The notes under the pieces: generated by a model
Database searches by the model: none
Seen by the model: the letters and a program-made list of their open reading frames with translations, nothing else
Told to the model about the DNA's origin: nothing
Shown: positions 30,872 to 64,000 of the stretch, piece by piece
Layout of the letters: every line of letters begins with the position of its first letter
Position numbering within the stretch: position 1 is the first letter of the stretch
IMG/VR virus record: IMGVR_UViG_3300047483_000174
Location: 49,051 to 113,050 of that record
Length of the DNA stretch: 64,000 nucleotides
Reading direction: 5' to 3' (one strand)
Origin: a virus
Position numbers and translations under genes: made by a program

Positions 30872-33800
30872 TTACTGCACTCGTCTAAAATGATAATCTC
30901 CATCTACGTCAGTATAGCAGAACCGTGATACGAGTTCAAACCCATTTTCCCGCATGAAGTCTATAACTTCTTCAACCTTTGGTGCACCCTCGTTGTAATT
31001 CACATGCTGTGCCTCAAGGATTACATCCTTGGCATTTGCCAGACATTCTTTACCACCACGTAGGATATCTAGTTCTGCGCCCTGAACATCAATCTTAATC
31101 AAGTCAGGCTTTGGCAGTTTAGCAGTGACCGTATCAAGCGTCAAGGTAATACGTTGCGTTGCATGGCTTTCGTCATAAAATGGTGTGTTTTCTTTGTAAT
31201 ACGAATTGCCACCTGGGTTTTGTGGGTCTTCATAAAATTTAATCAACTTTCCATCTTCATCGGACAAGACGCCAAGATAATATGGATGACCAGATGCCGC
31301 CAAGAACTCACGGGTCGTTTCAGTTGCATCAGCTAAGAAATATTCAGCATTTGGCCAAACTTCCTTTGCTTTTTTAGTCCAATGAAGCAAACTTGCTCCA
31401 ATATCATAAATCACTTTTGGTTGGATGCCCATATTTTTTAGATATTCTGCGTGTGGGGCAGGAAGCAAGTCGATTTCTGCAATTGTCTGAACGTGGGTTT
31501 TTTGAGGTGCTGCTGGTTTTGGAAATTCTCCAACTTTGAACTTTGTATTGCCAATATGATCACAAATGATGGAAGTATCGGCATATAGTTCATACCCAAG
31601 ACTTCTGGCCTTTGCACAGAAGTAAATATCTTCTGACACTGTGTGCTTATGGTCTATTGCTGATTTATAGACAAAGTGTGGATATTCCATGTTTCGGAAA
31701 ACTTCGCCTTTGATAAGAGCACACCCAAATCCACATCCAGCAATCTGAACCAATCCCCTGCCTTGGATTTCTTCGTATGGGATATTTACTGTGCCACCCA
31801 TCCCGCTGTCTTTATATACTTCTAACGTATGAGTATTTGGTATACGCTGAATGTATAACCCAGATACCAATGGGTTATCGGCGTTTAGCATTTTACGAAG
31901 TGAATCTCTTGGTAGGACAATATCCGAATCAACAGAGAATAGATAATCGTAATTTTTAGCCCAATCAGCAATAAGGTTGCGGATTTGGTCTACTTGGTAT
32001 CCGTAGAAGAATTGAAGTTCTGTCGTGTATCCATCTGGAACATCTAAATCATATATGGATTTCATTGTTTCAGTCTCAACGTATTTGTTGGTTGGAACTG
32101 CGATAAGGATAGATTTTGTTTTCATCGTTTGCTTTTCTGTTGACAATGAGGCGTTAGCATTTTGTTCTGCACCTCGTATTTTGTAATCATTCAATGGGTT
32201 TACATCATTATAGTTCACCATGATTTCTTTGACCGCATAAGGATATGACGCCCGTTCAATTAGTTCATAGAATAGTGGATTGTCTGCGCCAGCCTTCATC
32301 CAATCTCCATTTACTCTGAACACATCGCTGTCCAATGTTTCAAGTAACGAACCTCTAAATGTCCGAAGATGCGTGTATGGTATCCCCCAATTGAACTTAT
32401 GATTGCGATACTCTTTTTTGAGTATTACATCTTTGGGATAGTCTTGTGCTATCAATGGTATATTGTCAGCCAAACTCCACATAGAGCCGTATGTAAAATC
32501 GTAACCATCAAAATATAAGTCGTTATAATAATGGAATATTGTGTTGTTGTTTACCAGCCAATCATCGCCATCCAGCATCATAACAATATCGTCATTCTCA
32601 ACATACAAACTAAACGCTTTGAGTTGATTTGCAATCGCTCCAACGTTCTTTTTATTTTTTAGAACTTTGAACTTGTCTTGTATGTCCAGCGGAAGTTTAC
32701 TTACCGTTTTAGTTGCAATATCATACGAATTATCGTCGGATGCATCGTCAATCAGAACATGAATATAGTTATCGTATGATTGTTGCGCTACACTCAGAAT
32801 ATGATTTTCGATATAATTCTCTGCGTTCCAGAACGGAGAAACGACAACAATACGGCGTTGTTTTCCACTGCTACGATACTCAGTAATTTGTTCGGCGTTT
32901 GTAAATCTACGGCCAAATACACGAGCCACTTTATCATTTATGCGAGACACCGCCTCATATTCGTAAACTGGAAGTGGAACGTTCAGCTTTTTATAAAGGT
33001 GCTGCTTCCATTGAAGTGCTACCGTATCCCATCCTGCGATATCTACAACAACATCACAATAGTTCTGTTTTTGTTGGTGCAAGTATGTATTGTTGTATGC
33101 CCGTATTACTGTCTGAACAAACTTTTGTGCCTGAGATTGAGCATCAATATGGGGATACAATCCATTCGGAACGGCTGGATAATCTATCTTATAACATGCC
33201 ATGTCAATGGCAGTTTCTTCTAACGCACCAAAATTTCCAGTGATAATTGGAGTTTTATATAAAAGTGATTCAAGAGATGAAATGCCAAATGTTTCTGGGA
33301 AGTCTGGCGGATAAAGCATGAAACTTGCATCTGCAAGTATTTCAGCGATTTCTTGTTGGCTGATGACGCCAGTAAATTTGACATCCATGTCCAGAATGTA
33401 TTGACTCTTCATCAACTCTCTTACTGTTTTTTCTTGTTCGTCTGGTTCCGCGCCTTCACGAAAACGATAGAACCCACCAATACAAGTCAGTTTTGCGGTT
33501 GGAATATTTCTCTTTACTTCTGGCCAAATATTACGAAGAAGCGGAAGCAGTCCTTTTGTGGCAGATGCGTTATATACAAAATGGTTTCTATCTTTCTTTG
33601 AAAGGTCAACTTCATCTATATGTTTCACTGCGCCATTTCGTGTTTGCCAAACATATTTCTTCAACACCTCAAACATTCGTTTTGGGCCGTGAGCGCATGT
33701 GGTCACATATGAAGTATGCCAATCTGATAGAGTAAATAACTCATTTATCACACCAGAGGTAAGCATGTTTTCAATATGCTCATCACCTTGGCAGAACGTA

Positions 33801-34135
33801 TCGTGCATCCACAAAACTTTGTGTTTAGCATCATTTGCCATTTTTGCATACTGGTGTCCCATGAAAAATGGGAACACTGAACGAGAAGATATGAATACGT
33901 CATATGAAGGATGCGAACCTTTATATTCGGTATGGTCTATATGCCTTACTCCATCATAAGTTCCAGATGAAGATTTACTATCATTACAGTTATTATACAC
34001 ATCAACTTGAAATCCAAGTTTTACAAGTTCTTTAGAAATAAGAATGACGGCAGACTCGCTGCCGCCCAACCCTTGTTTAGAAAGGGTTGTGCCATCATAG
34101 CACAACCCCAATAAATCAACTATGGCAATTTTCAT
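30872..34135 (-). CDS. Multidomain glycosyltransferase (GT-B/GT4 + GT2 + second GT-A) fused to an FkbM-type methyltransferase
   Basis: N-terminal GGSE...ETFGISSLES (GT4); SPFWNAENYI...DDASDD...LDGDD (GT2); IAVPT...FSVDSDIV...SEDIYFC (GT-A); VIYDIGAS...IKIDVQGAE (FkbM). Confidence 0.85.
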   Translation of the reverse strand: MKIAIVDLLGLCYDGTTLSKQGLGGSESAVILISKELVKLGFQVDVYNNCNDSKSSSGTYDGVRHIDHTEYKGSHPSYDVFISSRSVFPFFMGHQYAKMANDAKHKVLWMHDTFCQGDEHIENMLTSGVINELFTLSDWHTSYVTTCAHGPKRMFEVLKKYVWQTRNGAVKHIDEVDLSKKDRNHFVYNASATKGLLPLLRNIWPEVKRNIPTAKLTCIGGFYRFREGAEPDEQEKTVRELMKSQYILDMDVKFTGVISQQEIAEILADASFMLYPPDFPETFGISSLESLLYKTPIITGNFGALEETAIDMACYKIDYPAVPNGLYPHIDAQSQAQKFVQTVIRAYNNTYLHQQKQNYCDVVVDIAGWDTVALQWKQHLYKKLNVPLPVYEYEAVSRINDKVARVFGRRFTNAEQITEYRSSGKQRRIVVVSPFWNAENYIENHILSVAQQSYDNYIHVLIDDASDDNSYDIATKTVSKLPLDIQDKFKVLKNKKNVGAIANQLKAFSLYVENDDIVMMLDGDDWLVNNNTIFHYYNDLYFDGYDFTYGSMWSLADNIPLIAQDYPKDVILKKEYRNHKFNWGIPYTHLRTFRGSLLETLDSDVFRVNGDWMKAGADNPLFYELIERASYPYAVKEIMVNYNDVNPLNDYKIRGAEQNANASLSTEKQTMKTKSILIAVPTNKYVETETMKSIYDLDVPDGYTTELQFFYGYQVDQIRNLIADWAKNYDYLFSVDSDIVLPRDSLRKMLNADNPLVSGLYIQRIPNTHTLEVYKDSGMGGTVNIPYEEIQGRGLVQIAGCGFGCALIKGEVFRNMEYPHFVYKSAIDHKHTVSEDIYFCAKARSLGYELYADTSIICDHIGNTKFKVGEFPKPAAPQKTHVQTIAEIDLLPAPHAEYLKNMGIQPKVIYDIGASLLHWTKKAKEVWPNAEYFLADATETTREFLAASGHPYYLGVLSDEDGKLIKFYEDPQNPGGNSYYKENTPFYDESHATQRITLTLDTVTAKLPKPDLIKIDVQGAELDILRGGKECLANAKDVILEAQHVNYNEGAPKVEEVIDFMRENGFELVSRFCYTDVDGDYHFRRVQ

Positions 34136-37987: not shown

Positions 37988-40900
37988 TTATCCGAAAATA
38001 ATTGCCATTGCGATTGCCAATCCAGTGCCGCCACGTGATCCGGTATAACCAATTACACCTTGAATACCCTGTGAACCAGTATAACCAATTACCCCTTGGG
38101 AACCAGTATAACCAATTACACCTTGAATACCCTGTGAGCCTGTATAACCAATTACACCCTGTGAACCTGTATATCCAATTACGCCTTGTGAACCAGTGAA
38201 ACCAGTAGCACCACGGGAACCAGTGTAACCAATTACACCTTGACTGCCTGTGTAACCAATTGGCCCCTGCACACCAGCAGCGGTAACCCACTGCGATGTA
38301 TCGCCATCGTTGAAATAAACTTTTATGGTTCCAGATTCAGTATCAAACCATATGTCACCGTTGTTTGGAGTAGATGGTGCAGTCGCAAGTGTTTGAGTGT
38401 TGAAACCTTGTGAACCCGTAAAGCCCTGTGAACCAGTGTATCCACGTGAACCAATAAAACCAGTAGAACCAGTATAACCAATAACACCTTGCGAACCAGT
38501 GTAACCAATTACACCTTGAATGCCTTGGCTACCTGTATAACCAATTACACCTTGGTCACCTTTAGACCCAGTGTATCCAATAATACCTTGTATACCTTGG
38601 CTACCAGTGAAGCCCTGAATGCCTTGAGAACCAGTAAATCCCTGAATACCTTGAATACCTTGACTTCCAGTAAAACCCTGAATACCCTGTATGCCTTGTG
38701 AACCAGTGAAACCAACATCACCCGATCTGTAGAACTGAATGGTGCAAGCCTCGGCGTTAGTAGGAAGAGACCCCGATACATATGTTACGTTTAGTTTTCT
38801 ATAACCAGTTGCGGTAGTGATAGAGTTGAGTCTGAAAACACACTTCGTTGTATCACTGTTTGTGTTAGAGTCAATGATAACAAAGCCTTTCACGGTGTTG
38901 GTGCTGTCGTCCCACGAATCTATGTAAGACGTGAAATCGACAGAACCTTGGTTCAGAATATCAATAAAAATTTGAGTTACAGAACCGATAGTAGCATTGT
39001 CAAAGCGGAAAATACCCGTTCCAGGATCAGCATCAGTCACCGTTGTAGAGAAATTATAGCGTAGACCAGCATTGTTACCCTCGCTTCCGGTGTAACCGAT
39101 TGGACCTTGCGAACCAGTAAAACCAATCACACCTTGCGAACCAGTATAACCAATAACACCTTGTATGCCTTGAGAACCAGTAAAGCCCTGAATGCCTTGG
39201 ATGCCCTGACTTCCAGTAAAGCCTTGAATACCCTGAATGCCTTGTGACCCTGTGTATCCAATAACACCTTGAATACCTTGTGAACCAGTATAACCAATTA
39301 CACCTTGTATGCCCTGAGAACCAGTAAAACCACGAGAACCAGTGTATCCAATTACACCTTGGCTTCCAGTGAAACCGATTATGCCTTGCGAACCAGTGAA
39401 ACCTTGGCTACCAGAGTATCCGATTGGTCCTTGGCTTCCAGTAAATCCCTGAATACCTTGAATACCTTGGTCGCCCTTAGAACCAGTGTATCCGATTGGA
39501 CCCTGAACCCCTTGGGAACCAGTATAACCAATAGAACCTGTATAACCAAGAGAACCAGTATATCCGATAACACCCTGCGAACCTGTATAACCAATATCAC
39601 CCTTGTCCCCAGTTCTTGCGAATGTAACAATGATATCATCGTTGTTGGCAAATGTGCCACTGCCAGATACATAACTACAGTTTACAGTAAACCAGCCTGT
39701 ATTGTTAGTCAAAGAAGTGATAGTATAAAGAGCAAAAGTAGATGCATCAAACTTTTTAGAAACTCTGAAGTGTCCTTTGATTGTACTTGTGCTGTCATCA
39801 ATTGTATTCAAATATGTTGAAATATCTGTTGCTGCATCGTTTGCCGCATCAATGTAGAGTGCAGTAGCAGAAGAAAGTGTAGCGTTATTGAATTTCAAAC
39901 GTCCAGTGGTTGGGTCTGCGGCGGTTGTAGTGCTGTCAAATGTATAATCAAACGTTGCTCCACCAAAGTTACCATCTGAACCACGAGAACCAGTAAAACC
40001 AATATCACCTTTGGAACCCGTGTAACCTATAACACCTTGAATGCCTTGACTACCTGTGTAACCAATAACGCCCTGTGAACCAGTGAAGCCCTGAGAACCT
40101 GTGTAACCAATTACGCCTTGACTTCCAGTAAACCCCTGAATACCCTGACTTCCAGTAAAGCCCTGTGACCCAGAGTATCCGATTGGTCCTTGTGAACCAG
40201 TAAAACCGATGTCGCCTTTTGAACCAGTAAAACCCTGCGAACCACTATACCCAATTACACCTTGAATACCTTGGCTACCTGTATAACCGATAACACCTTG
40301 TATGCCCTGACTTCCAGTAAAACCAGTCACGCCTTGAATACCCTGATTACCCTGTGAACCAGTAAATCCCTGTATACCTTGAATACCCTGTATACCTTGT
40401 GAACCCGTGTATCCGATTGGACCCTGAACACCCTGTGATCCTGTGTATCCCAAGTTACCAGAACGTGACAGATCAATGCTAACTATTTCGGCAGATGATG
40501 GAGTCAATGCACCAGCACCAGACACAAATGATACGTTCAACTGAACCCAAGTTGTGTTATCTACAACGCTGGTAACTTCATAAACATAATCTCGCTGTAA
40601 ATATCCAACAAGAGTGATATATGCTTTCACTGGGTTGTTCGAGCTTGCCCATTGAAGCAAATATGTTCTGTGTCCATTTCCGAGTGCATCGGTAGCGTTG
40701 AATGCCATAGCGGTAACAGAAGATGGTGTCGCATTGTTGAATCTAAAATAACCAGTTGTTGGTAGTGCCATTGTTGTTGTGGTTTCAAATTGCCAAGGCA
40801 ATCCGCCACCATAACCACGAGAACCAGTGAAACCAAGAGAACCTGTATAACCAATTACACCTTGACTGCCTGTGTAACCAATTACACCTTGGCTACCTGT

Positions 40901-41128
40901 ATAACCACGTGAGCCAATAAAACCCACTGAACCTGTATATCCGATTGGACCTTGAGAACCCGTAAAACCTTGAATACCTTGAATACCTTGAGAACCAGTA
41001 AATCCCTGTGAACCAGTATACCCTATCAGTCCACTAGTTGGACCTATCCAATTTCCGTTAGAATCAATAACGGGGGTTGACCCAGAAGTCAACCCATTCT
41101 TTACTATAAATTTCTTATCATTTGCCAT
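37988..41128 (-). CDS. Collagen-like fibre protein (GYTGSQ-type Gly-X-Y repeats) with three ~100-aa globular inserts
   Basis: Long Gly-X-Y tracts visible in the translation; C-terminal AIAMAIIFG. Confidence 0.85.
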   Translation of the reverse strand: MANDKKFIVKNGLTSGSTPVIDSNGNWIGPTSGLIGYTGSQGFTGSQGIQGIQGFTGSQGPIGYTGSVGFIGSRGYTGSQGVIGYTGSQGVIGYTGSLGFTGSRGYGGGLPWQFETTTTMALPTTGYFRFNNATPSSVTAMAFNATDALGNGHRTYLLQWASSNNPVKAYITLVGYLQRDYVYEVTSVVDNTTWVQLNVSFVSGAGALTPSSAEIVSIDLSRSGNLGYTGSQGVQGPIGYTGSQGIQGIQGIQGFTGSQGNQGIQGVTGFTGSQGIQGVIGYTGSQGIQGVIGYSGSQGFTGSKGDIGFTGSQGPIGYSGSQGFTGSQGIQGFTGSQGVIGYTGSQGFTGSQGVIGYTGSQGIQGVIGYTGSKGDIGFTGSRGSDGNFGGATFDYTFDSTTTAADPTTGRLKFNNATLSSATALYIDAANDAATDISTYLNTIDDSTSTIKGHFRVSKKFDASTFALYTITSLTNNTGWFTVNCSYVSGSGTFANNDDIIVTFARTGDKGDIGYTGSQGVIGYTGSLGYTGSIGYTGSQGVQGPIGYTGSKGDQGIQGIQGFTGSQGPIGYSGSQGFTGSQGIIGFTGSQGVIGYTGSRGFTGSQGIQGVIGYTGSQGIQGVIGYTGSQGIQGIQGFTGSQGIQGIQGFTGSQGIQGVIGYTGSQGVIGFTGSQGPIGYTGSEGNNAGLRYNFSTTVTDADPGTGIFRFDNATIGSVTQIFIDILNQGSVDFTSYIDSWDDSTNTVKGFVIIDSNTNSDTTKCVFRLNSITTATGYRKLNVTYVSGSLPTNAEACTIQFYRSGDVGFTGSQGIQGIQGFTGSQGIQGIQGFTGSQGIQGFTGSQGIQGIIGYTGSKGDQGVIGYTGSQGIQGVIGYTGSQGVIGYTGSTGFIGSRGYTGSQGFTGSQGFNTQTLATAPSTPNNGDIWFDTESGTIKVYFNDGDTSQWVTAAGVQGPIGYTGSQGVIGYTGSRGATGFTGSQGVIGYTGSQGVIGYTGSQGIQGVIGYTGSQGVIGYTGSQGIQGVIGYTGSRGGTGLAIAMAIIFG

Positions 41129-41167: not shown

Positions 41168-43288
41168 TTATGCAACTATCAAGGTCTCTGACACTTTATA
41201 TTGGGTTGAGTTTGCACTTGTTCCAGTTGCCATTATTCTCGCATTTCCCGAACTAATATCTACGTCATATGTGACAAATGCAGAACCTCCAGTATAAACA
41301 ACGCCATATTCAGTTGCGGATGCTGTTGTTCCATCATGTGCAACCAATAACTCCGTAACTTGAACTTCTCCTGATACTGTGTCATATGCTTGAACTATCA
41401 TCTTTCCAGAACGGAAAGACGCGACTGCAAACGATGCAATTTGAGTTTTCGTGGTTGTTGCGAGAGTAGTTGTTTCAGAATTTAGATTGACATTTGAGTT
41501 TATTTCAATATCCCCTGCCACATCAAGTGTTGCCGATGGGGATGTTGTTTTTATACCAACTCTATTATTTACATCATCATAGTAGAGGTTGGCAGCACCG
41601 CCAGATATTCCGCCATTATTGTATATTACCTGGCCATCTGTTCCTGCAACTGGACCAGTAGAACCAGTGTATCCAATTACACCTTGGCTTCCAGTGAAAC
41701 CGATTATGCCTTGAATACCTTGAACACCTTGACTTCCAGTAAATCCTTGAATACCTTGAACACCTTGTGAACCAGTGAAACCAATAACACCTTGGTCTCC
41801 TTTGGACCCTGTATAACCAATTACGCCCTGAATACCTTGACTGCCTGTATAACCAATCACGCCTTGTATACCTTGGCTTCCTGTATAACCAATTACGCCT
41901 TGTGAGCCAGTATAACCTGTTGTACCTCTAGAACCAGTATATCCAATTAGCCCTTGAGAACCAGTATATCCAATTACACCCTGTGGTCCAGTAATACCCT
42001 GCGAACCAGACAAATCACTTACATATGAATAGATACTTCCATTCCATAGATATAGACGTGAATTTTCTGCGTTCTCTACATCACCAGTTTCAATAATAGC
42101 AAATTGACCCGCAACAATACCAGTTGGTGCAGTGTCGGCAGTAAGAGCAGCAACAGATGCATACGATTTTGCGATAGAGAAACCAAGTCCTGTATCACCT
42201 TTGGAACCAGTGAAACCCTGTATTCCCTGAGAACCAGTAAAACCACGTGAACCACTATAACCAATAACACCTTGGCTTCCAGTGAACCCTTGGATGCCTT
42301 GTATGCCTTGAGAACCAGTATAACCAATTACACCCTGAATACCCTGTGATCCTGTATATCCGATTACACCTTGAATGCCTTGTATGCCCTGAGAACCAGT
42401 AAATCCTTGGCTTCCTGTATACCCAATTACACCCTGAACACCTTGTATGCCTTGACTTCCAGTATAACCAATAACGCCCTGTATGCCTTGACTTCCAGTA
42501 AATCCCTGAATACCTTGAATACCTTGACTTCCAGTAAATCCTCGGCTACCAGTAAAACCAATTACACCCTGAATACCTTGACTTCCAGTATAACCAATAA
42601 CGCCCTGTATGCCCTGACTTCCAGTAAATCCCTGAATACCTTGACTACCCGTGTACCCAATTACACCTTGTGAACCAGTGAAACCAATAACACCTTGGTC
42701 TCCTTTGGACCCTGTATAACCAATTACACCCTGTGAACCAGTAAAGCCCTGTATACCTTGTATACCTTGGCTACCTGTATAACCAATATTCCCTTGGTCT
42801 CCTTTTGAACCAGTGTAGCCAATTACGCCTTGACTTCCAGTATATCCCTGAATACCTTGGCTACCTGTGTAACCGTGCGACCCTGTGTAACCAATTACGC
42901 CTTGACTTCCAGTATATCCCTGAATACCTTGACTTCCAGTAAAGCCCTGACTACCAGTATATCCTATGGTTACTGGACTCGCATCAACCCATTGACTGTT
43001 GTTCCATACATATAAACGACCAGTATCGCCAGTATCATACCAAAGTGTTCCGTAATCTGGATTTTCTGGTGCAGTAGATGAAACCACAACTGGTGAAGTT
43101 CCAACAGACCACGTATTTTGCGCAGTTCGGTATCTTATACTTTTTGATGATACGTCAATCCATACGTCATTTGGTTCAATTGTGTATGATGATGATGGGT
43201 CAGATGATCCTTGGTAAATGGTTGTCCCACCTTTACCTATTTTGAAGTATGGCACTGTTGTGCCTTTTGCGTTTATTGTTATAGCCAT
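41168..43288 (-). CDS. Collagen-like fibre protein with C-terminal globular domain
   Basis: Gly-X-Y GYTGSQ/GIQ tracts; C-terminal FRSGKMIVQ...ELLVAHDG...TEYG domain also present in the 187-aa protein. Confidence 0.85.
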   Translation of the reverse strand: MAITINAKGTTVPYFKIGKGGTTIYQGSSDPSSSYTIEPNDVWIDVSSKSIRYRTAQNTWSVGTSPVVVSSTAPENPDYGTLWYDTGDTGRLYVWNNSQWVDASPVTIGYTGSQGFTGSQGIQGYTGSQGVIGYTGSHGYTGSQGIQGYTGSQGVIGYTGSKGDQGNIGYTGSQGIQGIQGFTGSQGVIGYTGSKGDQGVIGFTGSQGVIGYTGSQGIQGFTGSQGIQGVIGYTGSQGIQGVIGFTGSRGFTGSQGIQGIQGFTGSQGIQGVIGYTGSQGIQGVQGVIGYTGSQGFTGSQGIQGIQGVIGYTGSQGIQGVIGYTGSQGIQGIQGFTGSQGVIGYSGSRGFTGSQGIQGFTGSKGDTGLGFSIAKSYASVAALTADTAPTGIVAGQFAIIETGDVENAENSRLYLWNGSIYSYVSDLSGSQGITGPQGVIGYTGSQGLIGYTGSRGTTGYTGSQGVIGYTGSQGIQGVIGYTGSQGIQGVIGYTGSKGDQGVIGFTGSQGVQGIQGFTGSQGVQGIQGIIGFTGSQGVIGYTGSTGPVAGTDGQVIYNNGGISGGAANLYYDDVNNRVGIKTTSPSATLDVAGDIEINSNVNLNSETTTLATTTKTQIASFAVASFRSGKMIVQAYDTVSGEVQVTELLVAHDGTTASATEYGVVYTGGSAFVTYDVDISSGNARIMATGTSANSTQYKVSETLIVA

Positions 43289-47943: not shown

Positions 47944-49521
47944 TTACATCAAACTCACTAAAATTTCAATTATTCCAAACCCAGACGCTTGGCTTCCCAA
48001 CGCTTTGCCGATTACTGTTCCAACCGCAGGAGTTGAAGATGCAGTGGCGTATCCTGCTTGATCTGATGTAACAAGCAAATCGCCTTTGTTTATTGTTCCG
48101 TAAACCTTACATGTGGCACGTCCACTCAACACGACTGATGGGTGTGTAGTTGAAGTTCCTGCGTTTGCGTTCATCAAAATTGTTTCGTTTGAACCAATAA
48201 CACCGACAACAGTTTTATCGTCTGCAATTGTAGATTGGGTAATTTCGTTTGTTCCGCCAAACACCACAACAGTTCCAACATCATATACAGCATCAGTTGC
48301 GAAACGTTCAGATATATTAGTCCCGCTCACAGAATTGCTTGCATCTGTTACCATTGTATTGGTTGGAGTATTGGTAAAGTTATTATAATCCAAGTAATAT
48401 GATGGCAGTTGCGTATCTAACAAATCAGCATTTGTCGTAGTGGTCACAGTCGATGTTGTTGCTAATCTCAGAACATTCATTACTGAATTTAGAGCTAAAG
48501 GAGAAGATAGTGTAATTGTAGAACCAGTTACAGTATATGAGATGTCTGGATTCTGAACTACTCCGTCAATATACAATAGTATATGCCAAGATTGAGAGAC
48601 GAAATATGGAAGTGTGTATATACTCGTAGAACCGTTGCCAACAAATGTATCATAATACAACTGATTTATCTTTGCCGATGTGTCCAATACTATCTCATCA
48701 CCGACAACTGATACGGTCAAATCTCCGTTTCCTCCATTTGATATATTACCAACTGAAATTGTTTTGAATGATGCCATTGTGATATTTGATGAGTCGTATA
48801 TCGCAGCGCCAGTTCCAACATTTTGAGCAACAAAATCTATGGTATAAGTTCCTAATATATCATCATAGTTTGATTCCAATGAGTATCCAGAATCAAACAG
48901 TGAATTGAAACGGTCATCTACTCTTTCGTTTGTGTAGTAAAGATTGGTGGTTCCTTCGGTAAGGTCATCTGTCGTATAGTTTGTCAATACGTTTGTGATG
49001 TCAGTTCCATCGCCTATAATACTTGTGAAGTATCCAACTGCCGGAGTAGTAGCACCTATTACCGTGTTATCTATGTTTCCAGCACGAATATCAACTAAGC
49101 CATCGCCTGTGTTGTCTATGATGACTACACCATTTTGCGATGTTACATTACCAGAGATAGTTGCAAATACCACATTTGCATTTATGTTACCAGTAGTATG
49201 AAAGTCTTTATCGTCAAGAGTCCAGTAATCTTCTGTTTCATTCCAGAAGAGTCTGGCCCAAGTAAGATCGCCACGGTTTACTTCAATACCAACATCTTCT
49301 GTTGGTATTCCTTCAAAATCTGCATTTAGAGTTATGAATGGGTCCGCAAAAACCGTTTGTATTGAATTTACAGTGGTTGTGTTTCCTTCAACCTTTAAGT
49401 TTCCTCTTATAATAAGAGTTCCATTTCTTGATTCGATAACGGCATCATTGTCTCCATTGTCAAATGAGACGGTTTCACCACGTAAGAATAGACGATCACC
49501 AAATTTTATTTGTTCTGACAT
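47944..49521 (-). CDS. Fibre/structural protein with chaperone-like C-terminus
   Basis: GIEVNRG, TTDDLTEGTTNLYY and ERFATDAVYDVGTVVVFGG modules shared with the 936-aa protein. Confidence 0.7.
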   Translation of the reverse strand: MSEQIKFGDRLFLRGETVSFDNGDNDAVIESRNGTLIIRGNLKVEGNTTTVNSIQTVFADPFITLNADFEGIPTEDVGIEVNRGDLTWARLFWNETEDYWTLDDKDFHTTGNINANVVFATISGNVTSQNGVVIIDNTGDGLVDIRAGNIDNTVIGATTPAVGYFTSIIGDGTDITNVLTNYTTDDLTEGTTNLYYTNERVDDRFNSLFDSGYSLESNYDDILGTYTIDFVAQNVGTGAAIYDSSNITMASFKTISVGNISNGGNGDLTVSVVGDEIVLDTSAKINQLYYDTFVGNGSTSIYTLPYFVSQSWHILLYIDGVVQNPDISYTVTGSTITLSSPLALNSVMNVLRLATTSTVTTTTNADLLDTQLPSYYLDYNNFTNTPTNTMVTDASNSVSGTNISERFATDAVYDVGTVVVFGGTNEITQSTIADDKTVVGVIGSNETILMNANAGTSTTHPSVVLSGRATCKVYGTINKGDLLVTSDQAGYATASSTPAVGTVIGKALGSQASGFGIIEILVSLM

Positions 49522-51946: not shown

Positions 51947-52576
51947 TTAAAGTTTCAGTTCACGAATGAACTTTACTATTTGTTCTGACAAATACTTTTG
52001 CGCAGTCTTGTCATGTTGAACATCATGTGCCAGTTGCCAAGTTTGATAACCGCCACGCATATTCATTAGCCCTTCATATATCGCTTTTGGATAAGCATTA
52101 GGAGCACTAGGTTGTGCAACAATGTCTACCGTAACGATTTCAAAATTGCTTACATTACCGTTACCATCAACTTCACCCGAACCACGAGATGAAACACCAA
52201 GTGTTGCGCCAGACTCAATCAATGTTCTGATAATGTTTCCCATTGGAGTGGGAACAATTTTTAGTTTTCCAAAACCATTTGGTCCGTCCATCCACATATT
52301 CTCAATAATGTGAGAAACGCGGTCAACGTTCACTGTTAGTTCTGGTGGATGGTCGCACTCTCCAAGAACTGGAAAACCTTCAGATATTTTTTGCTGAACG
52401 CTTTCCACTGCTCTTGAAATTTCGGAGACCGGATATACTCTTTGGTTGGCATTCTTCACGCCACCTTGCACAAAGATACCTTCCATGAACATCGTTTTAT
52501 GTCCATTTTCACCCTCGACAATACGTGACTTGACGTTTGCTTGGTTATGAGATAGTCTTTCTATAAGAATGGCCAT
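51947..52576 (-). CDS. gp21: Prohead protease (gp21-like)
   Basis: EGIFVQGGVKNANQRVYP, LGECDHP, LGVSSRGSG, DIVAQPSAPNA. Confidence 0.95.
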   Translation of the reverse strand: MAILIERLSHNQANVKSRIVEGENGHKTMFMEGIFVQGGVKNANQRVYPVSEISRAVESVQQKISEGFPVLGECDHPPELTVNVDRVSHIIENMWMDGPNGFGKLKIVPTPMGNIIRTLIESGATLGVSSRGSGEVDGNGNVSNFEIVTVDIVAQPSAPNAYPKAIYEGLMNMRGGYQTWQLAHDVQHDKTAQKYLSEQIVKFIRELKL

Positions 52577-60479: not shown

Positions 60480-61139
60480 ATGAAATATAACATAATATCT
60501 ATACCTCGTTCTGGAAGTGGTTATCTGAGATCATTGATAGCAAAAAACTTGGAAACAAATGATAATTTCTATACAATAAGTGAGCCGTTTAATCCTACCA
60601 AGAACAGAAGTATTTCATATGAAGAAATGATTAAGTGTATGTCTATGTCTGATACTGTAGTAACAAAGAACCATATATTTGACTTGCTGGAATTAAAAAA
60701 TACAAACGAAGAATTGTATCAATCGTTCATAGGTATAGATTTCATTCACGTATGCTTATTAAGACGTGATTTGTTCGAATGCACGTTAAGCAGATGTATC
60801 GCAAAGATTACTAATCAATGGAATGAATACACATATTCGGAGAATGACAACATAGTCGTTCCCGAATATTTTTTTATGTCTGAGTTAAAAGACACAGTTG
60901 ATATGTTAGATGCCATATCTACATTGAACCTTGATTTCAGTAAAGTCATATATTATGAAGATTTGACATTCAATTCGGAAAAGGATTGTGAGTTATTTGG
61001 TATTCAGTATAATGGCGCAGATGTGACATACCAAAAATCCCCAAATAAGAATATGATAGTATCTAATATTGATGTCTTAAAACAGTCATTTTTTAATGAA
61101 ATAAATACTGTATCAGTTTCAAATATAGAGGGTTTATGA
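60480..61139 (+). CDS. Sulfotransferase-family protein
   Basis: 5'-PSB IPRSGSGYL, EPFN, 3'-PB RRDLFECTLS, IYYEDL. Confidence 0.75.
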   Translation: MKYNIISIPRSGSGYLRSLIAKNLETNDNFYTISEPFNPTKNRSISYEEMIKCMSMSDTVVTKNHIFDLLELKNTNEELYQSFIGIDFIHVCLLRRDLFECTLSRCIAKITNQWNEYTYSENDNIVVPEYFFMSELKDTVDMLDAISTLNLDFSKVIYYEDLTFNSEKDCELFGIQYNGADVTYQKSPNKNMIVSNIDVLKQSFFNEINTVSVSNIEGL

Positions 61140-61651
61140 AATACGCAATAACTGGACATACCTATGGAATAGGCGAAGGTCTTTATAATAGACTATCCCC
61201 AAACGCAATAGGATTTAGTAAATCTACTGGATACGACATAACAAAAAAAGAAGACCGCCAACGTATAATATATGAGGCATCTGACTGTTCGGTATTCATT
61301 AACAATGCCACCGATGGATTTGGTCAAAGCGAATTACTATTGGAGTTATGGCATCGTTGGAAAGATTCCGATAAGATTATCATAAATGTTGGTAGTAGAA
61401 TAGCAGAGGATCATATCAAACTGGACTACGCTTATTCTCATTTGCTGAGTTATAGTATGTATAAGAGAACACTCAAAAAACTTTCATACGATTTGATGAA
61501 TGTTGAAACACCTTTGAAAGTAAAATATTGCTGGTTTGGATACGTTGGCGTTCCACACATTTTAGCAAAGTATCCTCATTTTACGGAAAAGGATTATATA
61601 CCTGTCAGCGAGGCAGTTGATATTATATTGAAAGAAGAACATGGCGAGTAA
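61136..61651 (+). CDS. Truncated short-chain dehydrogenase/reductase-like protein
   Basis: AITGHTYGIG Rossmann motif, VFINNA, IINVGS, YSMYK (YxxxK-like). Confidence 0.7.
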   Translation: MKYAITGHTYGIGEGLYNRLSPNAIGFSKSTGYDITKKEDRQRIIYEASDCSVFINNATDGFGQSELLLELWHRWKDSDKIIINVGSRIAEDHIKLDYAYSHLLSYSMYKRTLKKLSYDLMNVETPLKVKYCWFGYVGVPHILAKYPHFTEKDYIPVSEAVDIILKEEHGE

Positions 61652-62159
61652 GAGTAAAGTCAAAGGTTCAAGTTACGAACGTGACATGGCAAAGTTTCTA
61701 AGTGAATTATACGATGGTAGTTTCGTAAGGGTTCCAAACTCAGGCGCATTTATCGGCGGAAAAAACAATAAGAGAACAGAAGTATTGAGTGAAGGTCAGA
61801 TACGTTCATTCAAGGGTGATATTATTCCTCCAGACGATTGGAAGTTCTTTAATTGTGAGTGCAAGTCATATGCTGATTTCCAGTTTCATCAACTGTTTTC
61901 TGATGGCGTCATTCCATTATTGGAAGGATGGATTAATCAGACTATGGAGGTTGCAGATAAAGGTGACTTGAATATCATCTTTATGAAGTTCACTCGTAAA
62001 GGTCAATATATCTGCTACCAGAAGTCTCTCGAATGGGAAACCCCGCATTCAACCGTCTACCATAGTAAGAAACATGGTGATTGGATATTCTGCGGGGCTG
62101 AAAAGTTTTGGGAGTTTCACTATGATAAAGTGAAAACCGTATCTATTGACGGTGTTTAG
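61641..62159 (+). CDS. Holliday-junction-resolvase-like PD-(D/E)xK nuclease
   Basis: KGSSYER, GDII, CECKSY motifs. Confidence 0.7.
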   Translation: MASKSKVKGSSYERDMAKFLSELYDGSFVRVPNSGAFIGGKNNKRTEVLSEGQIRSFKGDIIPPDDWKFFNCECKSYADFQFHQLFSDGVIPLLEGWINQTMEVADKGDLNIIFMKFTRKGQYICYQKSLEWETPHSTVYHSKKHGDWIFCGAEKFWEFHYDKVKTVSIDGV

Positions 62160-63289
62160 TCTGTTCTGATTTCGTCAAAACCCCAATCAATTGCGACTGG
62201 AAATCTGGGTATACCATCAGGTGTGTAATCAAAAAACCTGATGGTTGCCCATTTTGGTTTTGTCGGATTGTCGTAAAGGTCTTTCAGAAGTTCTTGATTT
62301 CCTCTTACGCCCGATCCAAACGGCTTGCCGTCTTTGTTTTCCAGAACAAACCGCTTGGCATGACCAGCCCAATTTCCAAGACCTTCTTCAATGCCAGTAA
62401 CTTTGAACTCGTCTGTCTTGAACTCTTTTCGTTTGATTAGATTATGAGAACGCTTGTTTTCATATTCCTTGTTACGACGAATCATCTGTCCCTCATATCC
62501 ATCTTCAATATATGCGGCATATAGGCTGTTCATATGGTCTTCATCAAGAATCATAAATGTTTCTACCTTTACAACGCATTCAGTCTTCGGTAGTAGTTTG
62601 AGGTATCTCTTGCTTCGTTCTTCAAATATCAAATCTTCTTCCACGCAATCAATAACGTCATAGATATGATATTCAATTAGCTTCTTTGAAATTTCAATGT
62701 CTTTTGGGGTAGGCTTTGTCTTTCTTACGATTGACGTAATCTTGTTGAAGTTTGTCTTCAGTTTGTGATTGTAAAGTTCGCCATCAAACGTCAGATTTGG
62801 ATGGTCAACAAATACATCCTTGATTGCTTCCCAGACGTGTGGAACGGATGTAATCTCTTTACCAGAACGAGTCCATAGCCCATCGGCCCTTGCGATACAG
62901 CGAATGCCATCCAGCTTTGGCTGCGAGTATAGCTTATCTTCCTCTGTGTTTATTTTTTCGTCGGCAAAGCCTTGAGCCAACATTGGATTAAACGTAGTCT
63001 TTGTATTGACTTCATCTACGTTTTCAAAGTAGCCAGAGTTCTTCTTGTTGGTGTAGTTGGCTACGATTTCTTTTTCAGCTTGTGAACGAATGGTAGTCGC
63101 GTTTGATTTTCCAGTATTCTTTGGAACACATTTATGCCAAGATGATGTAACTAAGTTTCCGCCACGAATACCAGAAACAGTTCGGTATCCAGCCGTATCT
63201 TCACCTTCTCCAAGTTCCATATACCATATTCGTATATTCTGTGAACTGTCAATCTTGAACAATGGTTCGTAAGTTTTTATGAGTTGCAT
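62156..63289 (-). CDS. ATP-dependent DNA ligase
   Basis: QPKLDGIR (KxDG), FDGELY, YDV, YEGQMIR, LIKRK, GIPRFP. Confidence 0.93.
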   Translation of the reverse strand: MQLIKTYEPLFKIDSSQNIRIWYMELGEGEDTAGYRTVSGIRGGNLVTSSWHKCVPKNTGKSNATTIRSQAEKEIVANYTNKKNSGYFENVDEVNTKTTFNPMLAQGFADEKINTEEDKLYSQPKLDGIRCIARADGLWTRSGKEITSVPHVWEAIKDVFVDHPNLTFDGELYNHKLKTNFNKITSIVRKTKPTPKDIEISKKLIEYHIYDVIDCVEEDLIFEERSKRYLKLLPKTECVVKVETFMILDEDHMNSLYAAYIEDGYEGQMIRRNKEYENKRSHNLIKRKEFKTDEFKVTGIEEGLGNWAGHAKRFVLENKDGKPFGSGVRGNQELLKDLYDNPTKPKWATIRFFDYTPDGIPRFPVAIDWGFDEIRTD

Positions 63290-63308
63290 GTGTTATCCTT
63301 TTACTGCA

Positions 63309-63337
63309 TTATACTGAATAGTTCACGGACTGTCAAT
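63309..63337 (-). promoter_or_regulatory. Consensus sigma70 promoter TTGACA-N17-TATAAT for the ligase gene
   Basis: Minus strand reads TTGACAgtccgtgaactattcagTATAAT, then AAGGA and ATG 63289. Confidence 0.88.
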
Positions 63338-63365
63338 AAAAAAGGCTCCACATATGTGGAGCCTT
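63338..63365 (-). terminator. Intrinsic terminator AAGGCTCCACAT/ATGTGGAGCCTT plus U-tract
   Basis: Long perfect inverted repeat immediately followed by the ligase -35 box. Confidence 0.88.
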
Positions 63366-63442
63366 AGTTTTCTCGTATGAGATATTAAGGAAGCCTCGCT
63401 GAGATGAGAGAGGTTGAGAGGAGACACAGGACTTCCCTAATG
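63338..63442 (-). ncRNA. Putative ~100 nt small RNA with a CU-rich loop
   Basis: Own promoter (63476-63448), 12-bp stem, small hairpin and terminator; no RBS-led ORF. Confidence 0.6.
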
Positions 63443-63447
63443 TTTAT

Positions 63448-63476
63448 AGAATATCAAATACGAATCATATTGTCAA
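63448..63476 (-). promoter_or_regulatory. Sigma70-type promoter TTGACA-N17-TATTCT
   Basis: TTGACA 63476-63471, spacer atatgattcgtatttga, TATTCT 63453-63448. Confidence 0.7.
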
Positions 63477-63492
63477 GAACTTTTTTCATATT

Positions 63493-64000
63493 TTATGCAA
63501 ATATTTCAGATTCTTCTGTCGCAATAACTTCTTCTTCTTGACTAAATGATGTGAACCCATTCTCTTTCACAACATTCAATACGTTGGAAACCCGCCCTTG
63601 AAGTTCGTCTCTATGTGAAACCAAGAAAATTGTCCGATTACTTTCTCTTACCATTTTCTTTAGAACTGACAATGATGCTTCTACGCCGTTTGTATCCATA
63701 CCACTATCAATCAACTCATCTACAAACAGAACATTGATGGTGCTGTATAGTGACTCGAAGATATCTCTGAACGCCCATGACAAGCCAAGGATAAGTCGGT
63801 TTCGTTCACCACGTGACAGGTTATCAAAGTCAAGGTCTCTACCGAGTTCTTTGATTTCAACACTCAAATCGCTCTGGAACCGAACTTCATGTGGCAAACC
63901 AAGTTTTTCAAGGAAGAAATCAAGACGAGAATTTAGATAGTTTAGGTTTTGGTCAATGATTTTCTTGCGAATAAAGCTATCTTTGTTGGTAAGTAGTTTC
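63493..64000 (-). CDS. gp46: Recombination nuclease ATPase subunit (gp46/SbcC-like), C-terminal part; gene starts beyond the window
   Basis: ABC signature LSRGE, Walker B LFVDE, D-loop SGMD, H-loop LVSH. Confidence 0.9.
   Translation of the reverse strand, partial: KLLTNKDSFIRKKIIDQNLNYLNSRLDFFLEKLGLPHEVRFQSDLSVEIKELGRDLDFDNLSRGERNRLILGLSWAFRDIFESLYSTINVLFVDELIDSGMDTNGVEASLSVLKKMVRESNRTIFLVSHRDELQGRVSNVLNVVKENGFTSFSQEEEVIATEESEIFA

Follow-up and report, generated by a model that had tools for sequence, protein, structure and literature searches.

A probable small-RNA gene with an anti-Shine-Dalgarno-like loop is conserved among uncultured T4-like jumbo phages of the ocean

We identify, in a 64,000-nt stretch of viral DNA (IMG/VR virus record IMGVR_UViG_3300047483_000174, positions 49,051 to 113,050; hereafter the window), a gene of ~104 nt that lies between the genes for gp46 and DNA ligase and is very probably a real small-RNA gene maintained by selection. 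The explanation that best accounts for all of the evidence, and that we hold with moderate confidence, is a phage small RNA that would act by pairing of its loop with Shine-Dalgarno regions. The CU-loop RNA is a new family of a known functional kind, and a full-text literature search found no description of it.

The viral record that contains the window is 137 kb long, has a G+C content of 39.7% and is rated 37% complete. Among its products are a T4-type portal, major capsid protein and tail sheath, along with terminase, gp32 and NrdAB; the capsid protein is ~70% identical to those of the jumbo phages PA5oct (Pseudomonas), 2.275.O (Vibrio) and Phosso (Sinorhizobium), and gp46 is ~47% identical to PA5oct gp46. 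Related viral contigs reach up to 342 kb, and one contig of 342.6 kb with terminal repeats is rated 100% complete. From the gene content, the capsid and gp46 relatives and the sizes of related contigs, we assign the source as an uncultured marine T4-like jumbo phage. By capsid and gp46 proteins, the closest phages are jumbo phages of Pseudomonas, Vibrio, Sinorhizobium and Agrobacterium, a span that does not establish the alphaproteobacterial host in which the original prediction had framed the RNA. Elsewhere in the window, collagen triple-helix repeats (PF01391, E = 2e-89 and 1e-58) fill two minus-strand proteins of 1046 and 706 residues (37988-41128 and 41168-43288) that sit among structural genes and may be fibres, and a minus-strand gene at 30872-34135 encodes a 1087-residue fusion of two glycosyltransferase domains and an FkbM-type methyltransferase domain. 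A three-gene plus-strand cluster with a RusA-like Holliday-junction resolvase (60480-62159) opposes the minus-strand flow and is convergent with the end of the ligase gene.

On the minus strand, a gap of 203 nt separates the gp46 stop codon (63493) from the DNA ligase ATG (63289), and a complete small-RNA unit lies inside it (Table 1). The promoter is of sigma-70 type and matches 10 of 12 consensus positions, with a 17-nt spacer that ends in TGA and places a TG at 63456-63455 to give an extended −10. Judged from these signals, the 5′ end of the RNA would lie ~7 nt past the −10 and the 3′ end would be the U-run. Stem 1 comprises 12 pairs, two of which are G-U, and encloses a loop in which C or U make up 76% of positions; the GC-rich stem of the terminator occupies 63365-63342, and its U-run reaches 63338. 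Promoter, stem, CU loop, small hairpin and terminator had all been described in the original prediction, and each is present on the minus strand where it was placed; the description of a stand-alone non-coding unit of ~100 nt likewise agrees with the presence of both a promoter and a terminator of its own. The 109-nt RNA has a predicted folding energy of −35.9 kcal/mol (z = −4.9), which none of 200 shuffles equals. Promoter-like matches number 6 in 2 kb against 5.0 expected, so that the promoter alone is not above chance; the element rises above chance because it is conserved in relatives and not because of the promoter match alone. A tRNA scan gave no match.

Table 1. Features of the small-RNA locus, its neighbours and the candidate target genes (window coordinates)
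Feature	Position	Strand	Details
Small-RNA promoter	63448..63476	−	−35 TTGACA, 63476-63471; −10 TATTCT, 63453-63448
Predicted small-RNA transcript	63338..63441	−	~104 nt; both ends predicted
Stem 1, 5′ arm	63430..63441	−	ATTAGGGAAGTC
Stem 1, 3′ arm	63384..63395	−	GGCTTCCTTAAT
CU-rich loop	63396..63429	−	34 nt
Loop core	63425-63405	−	21 nt, GTCTCCTCTCAACCTCTCTCA; nearly invariant
Small hairpin 2	63371..63382	−	4 bp, TCTC-ATAC-GAGA
Intrinsic terminator	63338..63365	−	10-bp stem AAGGCTCCAC/GTGGAGCCTT, loop ATAT, then U-run
Separate ligase promoter	63308..63336	−	TTGACA-N17-TATAAT, consensus 12/12; neighbour, outside the RNA
gp46, 3′ part	63493..64000	−	SbcC/Rad50-like recombination nuclease subunit; conserved upstream neighbour
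Candidate target, NrdB	start 4184		
Candidate target, tail sheath	start 23884		
Candidate target, gene	51947-52576		
Candidate target, portal	start 55612		
Candidate target, gp46 itself	start 65286		

Homologues of the unit define a gene family linked to gp46. Searching a phage isolate collection with the DNA of the 203-nt gap gave no match, and an exact 25-mer from the window found none in viral contigs because stem-side bases vary. Ligase was rejected as an anchor, as 80 relatives (≤52% identity) have other upstream genes and no gp46; with gp46 as the anchor, relatives share the neighbourhood. Four contigs that are identical in sequence at this locus, the L093 group, have the order gp46, a 237-nt gap and ligase, and their proteins are 71% (gp46) and 57% (ligase) identical to those of the window. 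The L093 loop DNA is nearly identical to that of the window, the stem differences are compensatory (G-C to A-U and G-U to A-U), the terminator has another stem sequence with the hairpin retained, and the −35 and TG −10 are kept. The original prediction had looked to relatives for conservation between gp46 and ligase, and in this group the element is retained within the same gene order.

A covariance model (R1) built from two sequences, the window and L093, matches 64 gp46-linked viral loci, in each case 0.2-2.6 kb downstream of gp46 and on its strand, and finds a single copy in the 137-kb record. A second-round covariance model (R2) finds one copy in each of five larger relatives, including the complete 342.6-kb genome with terminal repeats, and has no match in the isolates PA5oct, Vibrio phage 2.275.O and Sinorhizobium phage Phosso. 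Promoter and terminator are both retained in 53 of 55 distinct copies; among the 53 promoter-bearing copies the −35 is TTGACA in 34 and TTGACT in 19, the spacer is 17 nt in 49, and the −10 is TG-extended in 52. Predicted lengths fall into classes of 104-127 nt (32 copies, the window's included) and 157-221 nt (21 copies). Members of the long class (for example L142:2241-2420, L157:4293-4470 and L126:7126-7300) have an extra conserved hairpin with a loop of roughly GUUAGACCUUAACGUA, followed by AAAAAGCACAAAAAGG before the terminator, which may be a second functional module; the long-class loci L142, L157, L125 and L133 gave no match to Rfam. The exact 21-mer core is present in 78 viral contigs and in 86 marine metagenome contigs, Tara Oceans scaffolds among them, and is absent on both strands from 185,579 bacterial and archaeal species genomes, which indicates a phage-specific sequence with no host copy, perfect host target or CRISPR spacer in those genomes. 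The carriers appear to form a clade of uncultured marine T4-like jumbo phages of ~340 kb with one copy of the small RNA each, and we have high confidence that what they carry is a real, selected RNA gene.

Comparison of the copies further supports the predicted RNA fold. Pairing holds for 89.9% of cells in the model-fitted alignment and for 40-52% once the partners are slid by 1-3 columns; changes on both sides occur in 16 of 17 pairs overall and in 12 of 12 pairs of stem 1, and none of 500 shuffles reaches the observed covariation values. Hairpin 2 is paired in 93% of cells across homologues, with two of three pairs covarying. Because a model-fitted alignment leans towards its model, the count was redone on a structure-blind MAFFT alignment of 48 sequences, where 71% of cells are paired against 37-56% and again no shuffle of 500 reaches the observed level. 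RNAalifold predicted no pairs on the MAFFT alignment because the 3′ arms are misaligned, and the count for the named structure on that same alignment supports the stem. Stem 1 cells comprise 270 Watson-Crick, 54 G-U and 3 A-C pairs, and this excess of G-U over A-C indicates that the fold exists solely on the gp46-sense strand, that is, as RNA. The 21-nt core of the loop, GUCUCCUCU(C/A)AACCUCUCUCA, shows almost no variation across copies, with one subclade carrying the variant GUUACCCUCUCAAC-UCUCA. Predictions for 55 homologues put the mean unpaired probability of the core at 0.89 and that of the remaining RNA at 0.33, in keeping with the exposed loop that had been claimed.

The loop sequence matches the ribosome-binding sites of the phage. 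Its core holds two pyrimidine boxes, UCUCCUCU and ACCUCUCUC; the words AGGAG and GGAGA are the most enriched upstream of phage starts, and UCUCCU in the loop is the exact complement of AGGAGA, the commonest ribosome-binding motif of the phage, which bears out the anti-Shine-Dalgarno-like character originally ascribed to the loop. With compact duplex scoring, a start-region match of ≤ −12 kcal/mol is conserved in 11 orthologue pairs from two complete genomes, compared with 0-3 matches when the same scoring is applied to eight shuffled loops of equal composition, indicating that the base order of the loop fits the ribosome-binding sites of the clade better than mere CU-richness would. The conserved matches fit generic AGGAGA and GAGAGG leaders. 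Unrestricted RNAduplex scans gave bulged duplexes, and under that scoring start regions were hardly better than gene interiors or shuffled loops. GGAGAC, the extension that would make a match specific to the RNA, shows no enrichment after GGAG, and a search of five related genomes for the 19-nt loop complement with ≤3 mismatches returned no match besides the RNA gene itself.

Candidate targets were ranked by their start regions. The best-scoring leaders in the window (Table 1) each pair over 7-9 bp at −12 to −14.5 kcal/mol; set against shuffled CU-rich loops, none of the predicted targets is clearly better, and none is outstanding. Conservation is greatest for the gp46 start region, which ranks 2 of 471 in the relative G002: in almost all relatives the gp46 leader reads GCAAGAGAGAGGUA before a TTG start and pairs over 9 bp with loop box 2. 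The corresponding leader in the window, AGAGAGAGAUAAUG, pairs over 7 bp and ranks 16 of 184. The gp46 start region outperforms shuffled loops only at p 0.01-0.08, and the conserved leader also encodes the last residues of the upstream gene (A-R-E-R-stop), which weakens its reading as a target. In the window the gp46 start is an ATG that overlaps the upstream stop codon (TAATG), and relatives use TTG. The leader of a 105-residue membrane protein in the relative G001 (75982-76299, minus strand), which lies behind a late-type ATAAATAC motif and matches ~18 of 22 loop positions, reached −27.7 kcal/mol and was discarded as a target because the match is lost in the 87%-identical G002 orthologue. The phage S21 gene does not fit as a target.

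We propose that host RNA polymerase would transcribe the small RNA early from the strong sigma-70-type promoter and stop at the RNA's own terminator, that the 12-bp stem would hold a loop of ~30 nt open, and that the loop would pair in trans with purine-rich Shine-Dalgarno regions (AGGAGA, AGAGGAGAC and GAGAGAGG) of phage messages and perhaps of host messages. Such pairing would block 30S binding or change message decay. In the specific form of an early, abundant RNA that pairs in trans with many purine-rich leaders, we give this proposal about an even chance; the loop might then be unable to change because many targets must be fitted at once. We rank message pairing first, a protein or ribosome decoy second and a cis-acting gp46 3′ UTR third.

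Early expression of the small RNA is plausible because its homologues share one promoter class, TTGAC(A/T)-N17 with a TG-extended −10. Start regions directly behind early-type promoters pair with the loop better than others do (p = 7e-5), and those that immediately follow late-type TATAAATA motifs show no such advantage (p = 0.53; 29 genes flagged). The original prediction had proposed an early phage small RNA that could delay late translation. The early part is plausible, given the promoter class in 53 of 55 copies, whereas the link to late genes is unsupported, since it is the genes with early-type promoters that pair better and not the late-type ones, in what is a weak test with 29 late genes.

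The foremost alternative accepts a real RNA and holds that its invariant pyrimidine loop serves as a decoy or platform that binds a protein or the ribosome and not messages, with ribosomal protein S1, Rho, a cold-shock protein or a phage protein as possible partners; we regard it as unlikely. The loop is invariant over 21 nt even though the gp46 proteins of the carriers are only 54-73% identical to that of the window, and because this length exceeds the typical seed of 6-9 nt, a protein or the ribosome could also be the partner; the finding that no message target is outstanding points the same way. Unstructured pyrimidine-rich RNA is the preferred ligand of S1, Rho and cold-shock proteins. These proteins bind degenerate sequences, however, and would not demand an invariant 21-mer, and both boxes of the loop exactly complement ribosome-binding words used by the phage itself. 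Co-occurrence likewise points to no partner protein. Genes for bS21 (PF01165, above cut-off) are present in four relatives (G002:293050-293205, G001:178386-178541, G003:11263-11418 and G004:170132-170293) and were not found in the 137-kb record; they are also present in PA5oct, Vibrio phage 2.275.O and Phosso, all of which are without the small RNA, so that co-occurrence is not specific. A search for an Hfq gene found none, and a search for a RegA-type gene gave no match, with a family that matched no control genome either.

A variant that stays closer to Shine-Dalgarno pairing is that the RNA mimics the 16S rRNA 3′ tail and, as a bulk early RNA, competes with ribosomes for strong Shine-Dalgarno sequences, which we think improbable. 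If true, the choice among host and phage messages would be reset and the RNA would be a general device for translation takeover, not a regulator of a few genes, that may act alongside the ribosomal protein S21 encoded by these jumbo phages.

More doubtful still is a role in cis, in which the element forms the 3′ end of the gp46 message as a stabilising or terminating 3′-UTR module that possibly folds back on the gp46 start region, with the internal promoter secondary. The stretch from the gp46 stop (63493) to the element has no terminator, which means that read-through transcripts must carry the element; in 64 of 64 model loci it follows gp46 on the same strand, and in most relatives the conserved gp46 leader GAGAGAGGU has a 9-bp match to loop box 2. 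Against this reading, 53 of 55 copies retain a near-consensus promoter of their own, most relatives have one to several genes between gp46 and the element at distances of up to 2.6 kb, and the gp46 match extends over just 7 bp in the window phage.

Two further explanations have very little probability. Position directly upstream of ligase, together with a terminator, could suggest a leader or attenuator of the downstream gene or a promoter-terminator spacer without RNA function, but ligase has its own promoter (12/12) past the terminator, so that the RNA is not its leader, the downstream gene varies among relatives (at least five families in a rough ORF call), and a mere spacer would not keep an invariant 21-nt loop and a covarying stem. 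The sole ORF at the element is a 34-codon GTG frame (63427-63323) with AGGGAAG 4 nt 5′ of the GTG, which could be read as a micropeptide, and loop invariance could in principle act at the level of DNA, for example as a protein-bound polypyrimidine tract; the frame, however, runs through the terminator, and it is disrupted in L093 by a deletion of 2 nt and also by further indels that are not multiples of three. Loop invariance is equal at all three codon positions with no third-position drift, and stem changes come in pairs. The indels and the equal invariance of codon positions exclude a peptide, and the one-strand folding seen in the G-U and A-C counts argues against a DNA-level site.

We compared the RNA with known families. 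An Rfam scan of 63200-63600 lists none of alpha-r14/cuckoo, alpha-r15 (AbcR), RsaE/RoxS or Yfr1 even at E ≤ 10, and nothing in a scan of the whole window reaches its gathering score. The comparators are the trans-acting bacterial small RNAs whose C/U-rich loops obstruct Shine-Dalgarno sites: AbcR1/2 (alpha-r15), cuckoo/alpha-r14 (CcsR and NfeR1), RoxS/RsaE and RNAIII of Bacillota, and cyanobacterial Yfr1. Like these, the phage RNA is a non-coding unit of ~100 nt with its own promoter and intrinsic terminator, and it presents an unpaired pyrimidine-rich loop motif complementary to ribosome-binding sites of the GGAG type. Unlike them, it has no sequence or structure homology to any by Rfam models, its carrier is a jumbo phage of lytic type with a core that none of the 185,579 species genomes contains, and its pyrimidine motifs, two boxes within an invariant core of 21 nt, sit in a single very large loop of ~30 nt where the comparators have several short ones.

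Among Rfam families with a genuine shared motif, the nearest miss is the Betaproteobacteria toxic small RNA (RF02278), with which the phage RNA has in common the 5′ word UGUCUCCU and a short, terminator-ended plan. Cloning of RF02278 members in E. coli is reported to be toxic, and what they do in Burkholderia is not known (PMC4603805). The phage RNA scores 21.3 bits (E = 0.046), mostly from the terminator, against a gathering score of 50, leaves the middle helix of RF02278 unmatched and is not a member of that family. A different parallel is the chlamydial small RNA IhtA, which represses the histone-like protein Hc1. In most relatives the phage RNA lies directly behind a very basic 58-residue gene product of the Hc1 family (PF07432, E = 9e-12) that is encoded between gp46 and the small RNA (for example L086:3800-3973, plus strand, and G002:183645-183818); the stop codon of the Hc1-like gene abuts the small-RNA promoter. 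The start region of the Hc1-like gene has just a generic UAGGAG, and its pairing with the loop does not exceed that with shuffled loops (p 0.03-0.9); the gene is absent from the record that contains the window and from the 92%-complete relative G001, both of which have the small RNA. Unlike IhtA, the phage RNA thus has no specific pairing with Hc1, no strict co-occurrence with it and no Rfam match, and neither the Hc1-like gene as a target nor an IhtA-like regulator of Hc1 fits the results.

Very little has been charted of the regulatory RNAs of virulent phages, and nothing of those of uncultured giant phages. With dozens of diverged copies, a covarying stem and conserved expression signals, the present case brings the support that sequence can give near to its limit, and it centres on a 21-nt loop that is unchanged across phages found ocean-wide, including in Tara Oceans scaffolds. 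Such an invariant loop points to a single unchanging partner, and identifying that partner could also reveal the host. If the RNA does block ribosome-binding sites, large lytic phages would use a bacterial-type RNA layer of translation control, and the loop would represent a compact natural anti-Shine-Dalgarno module.
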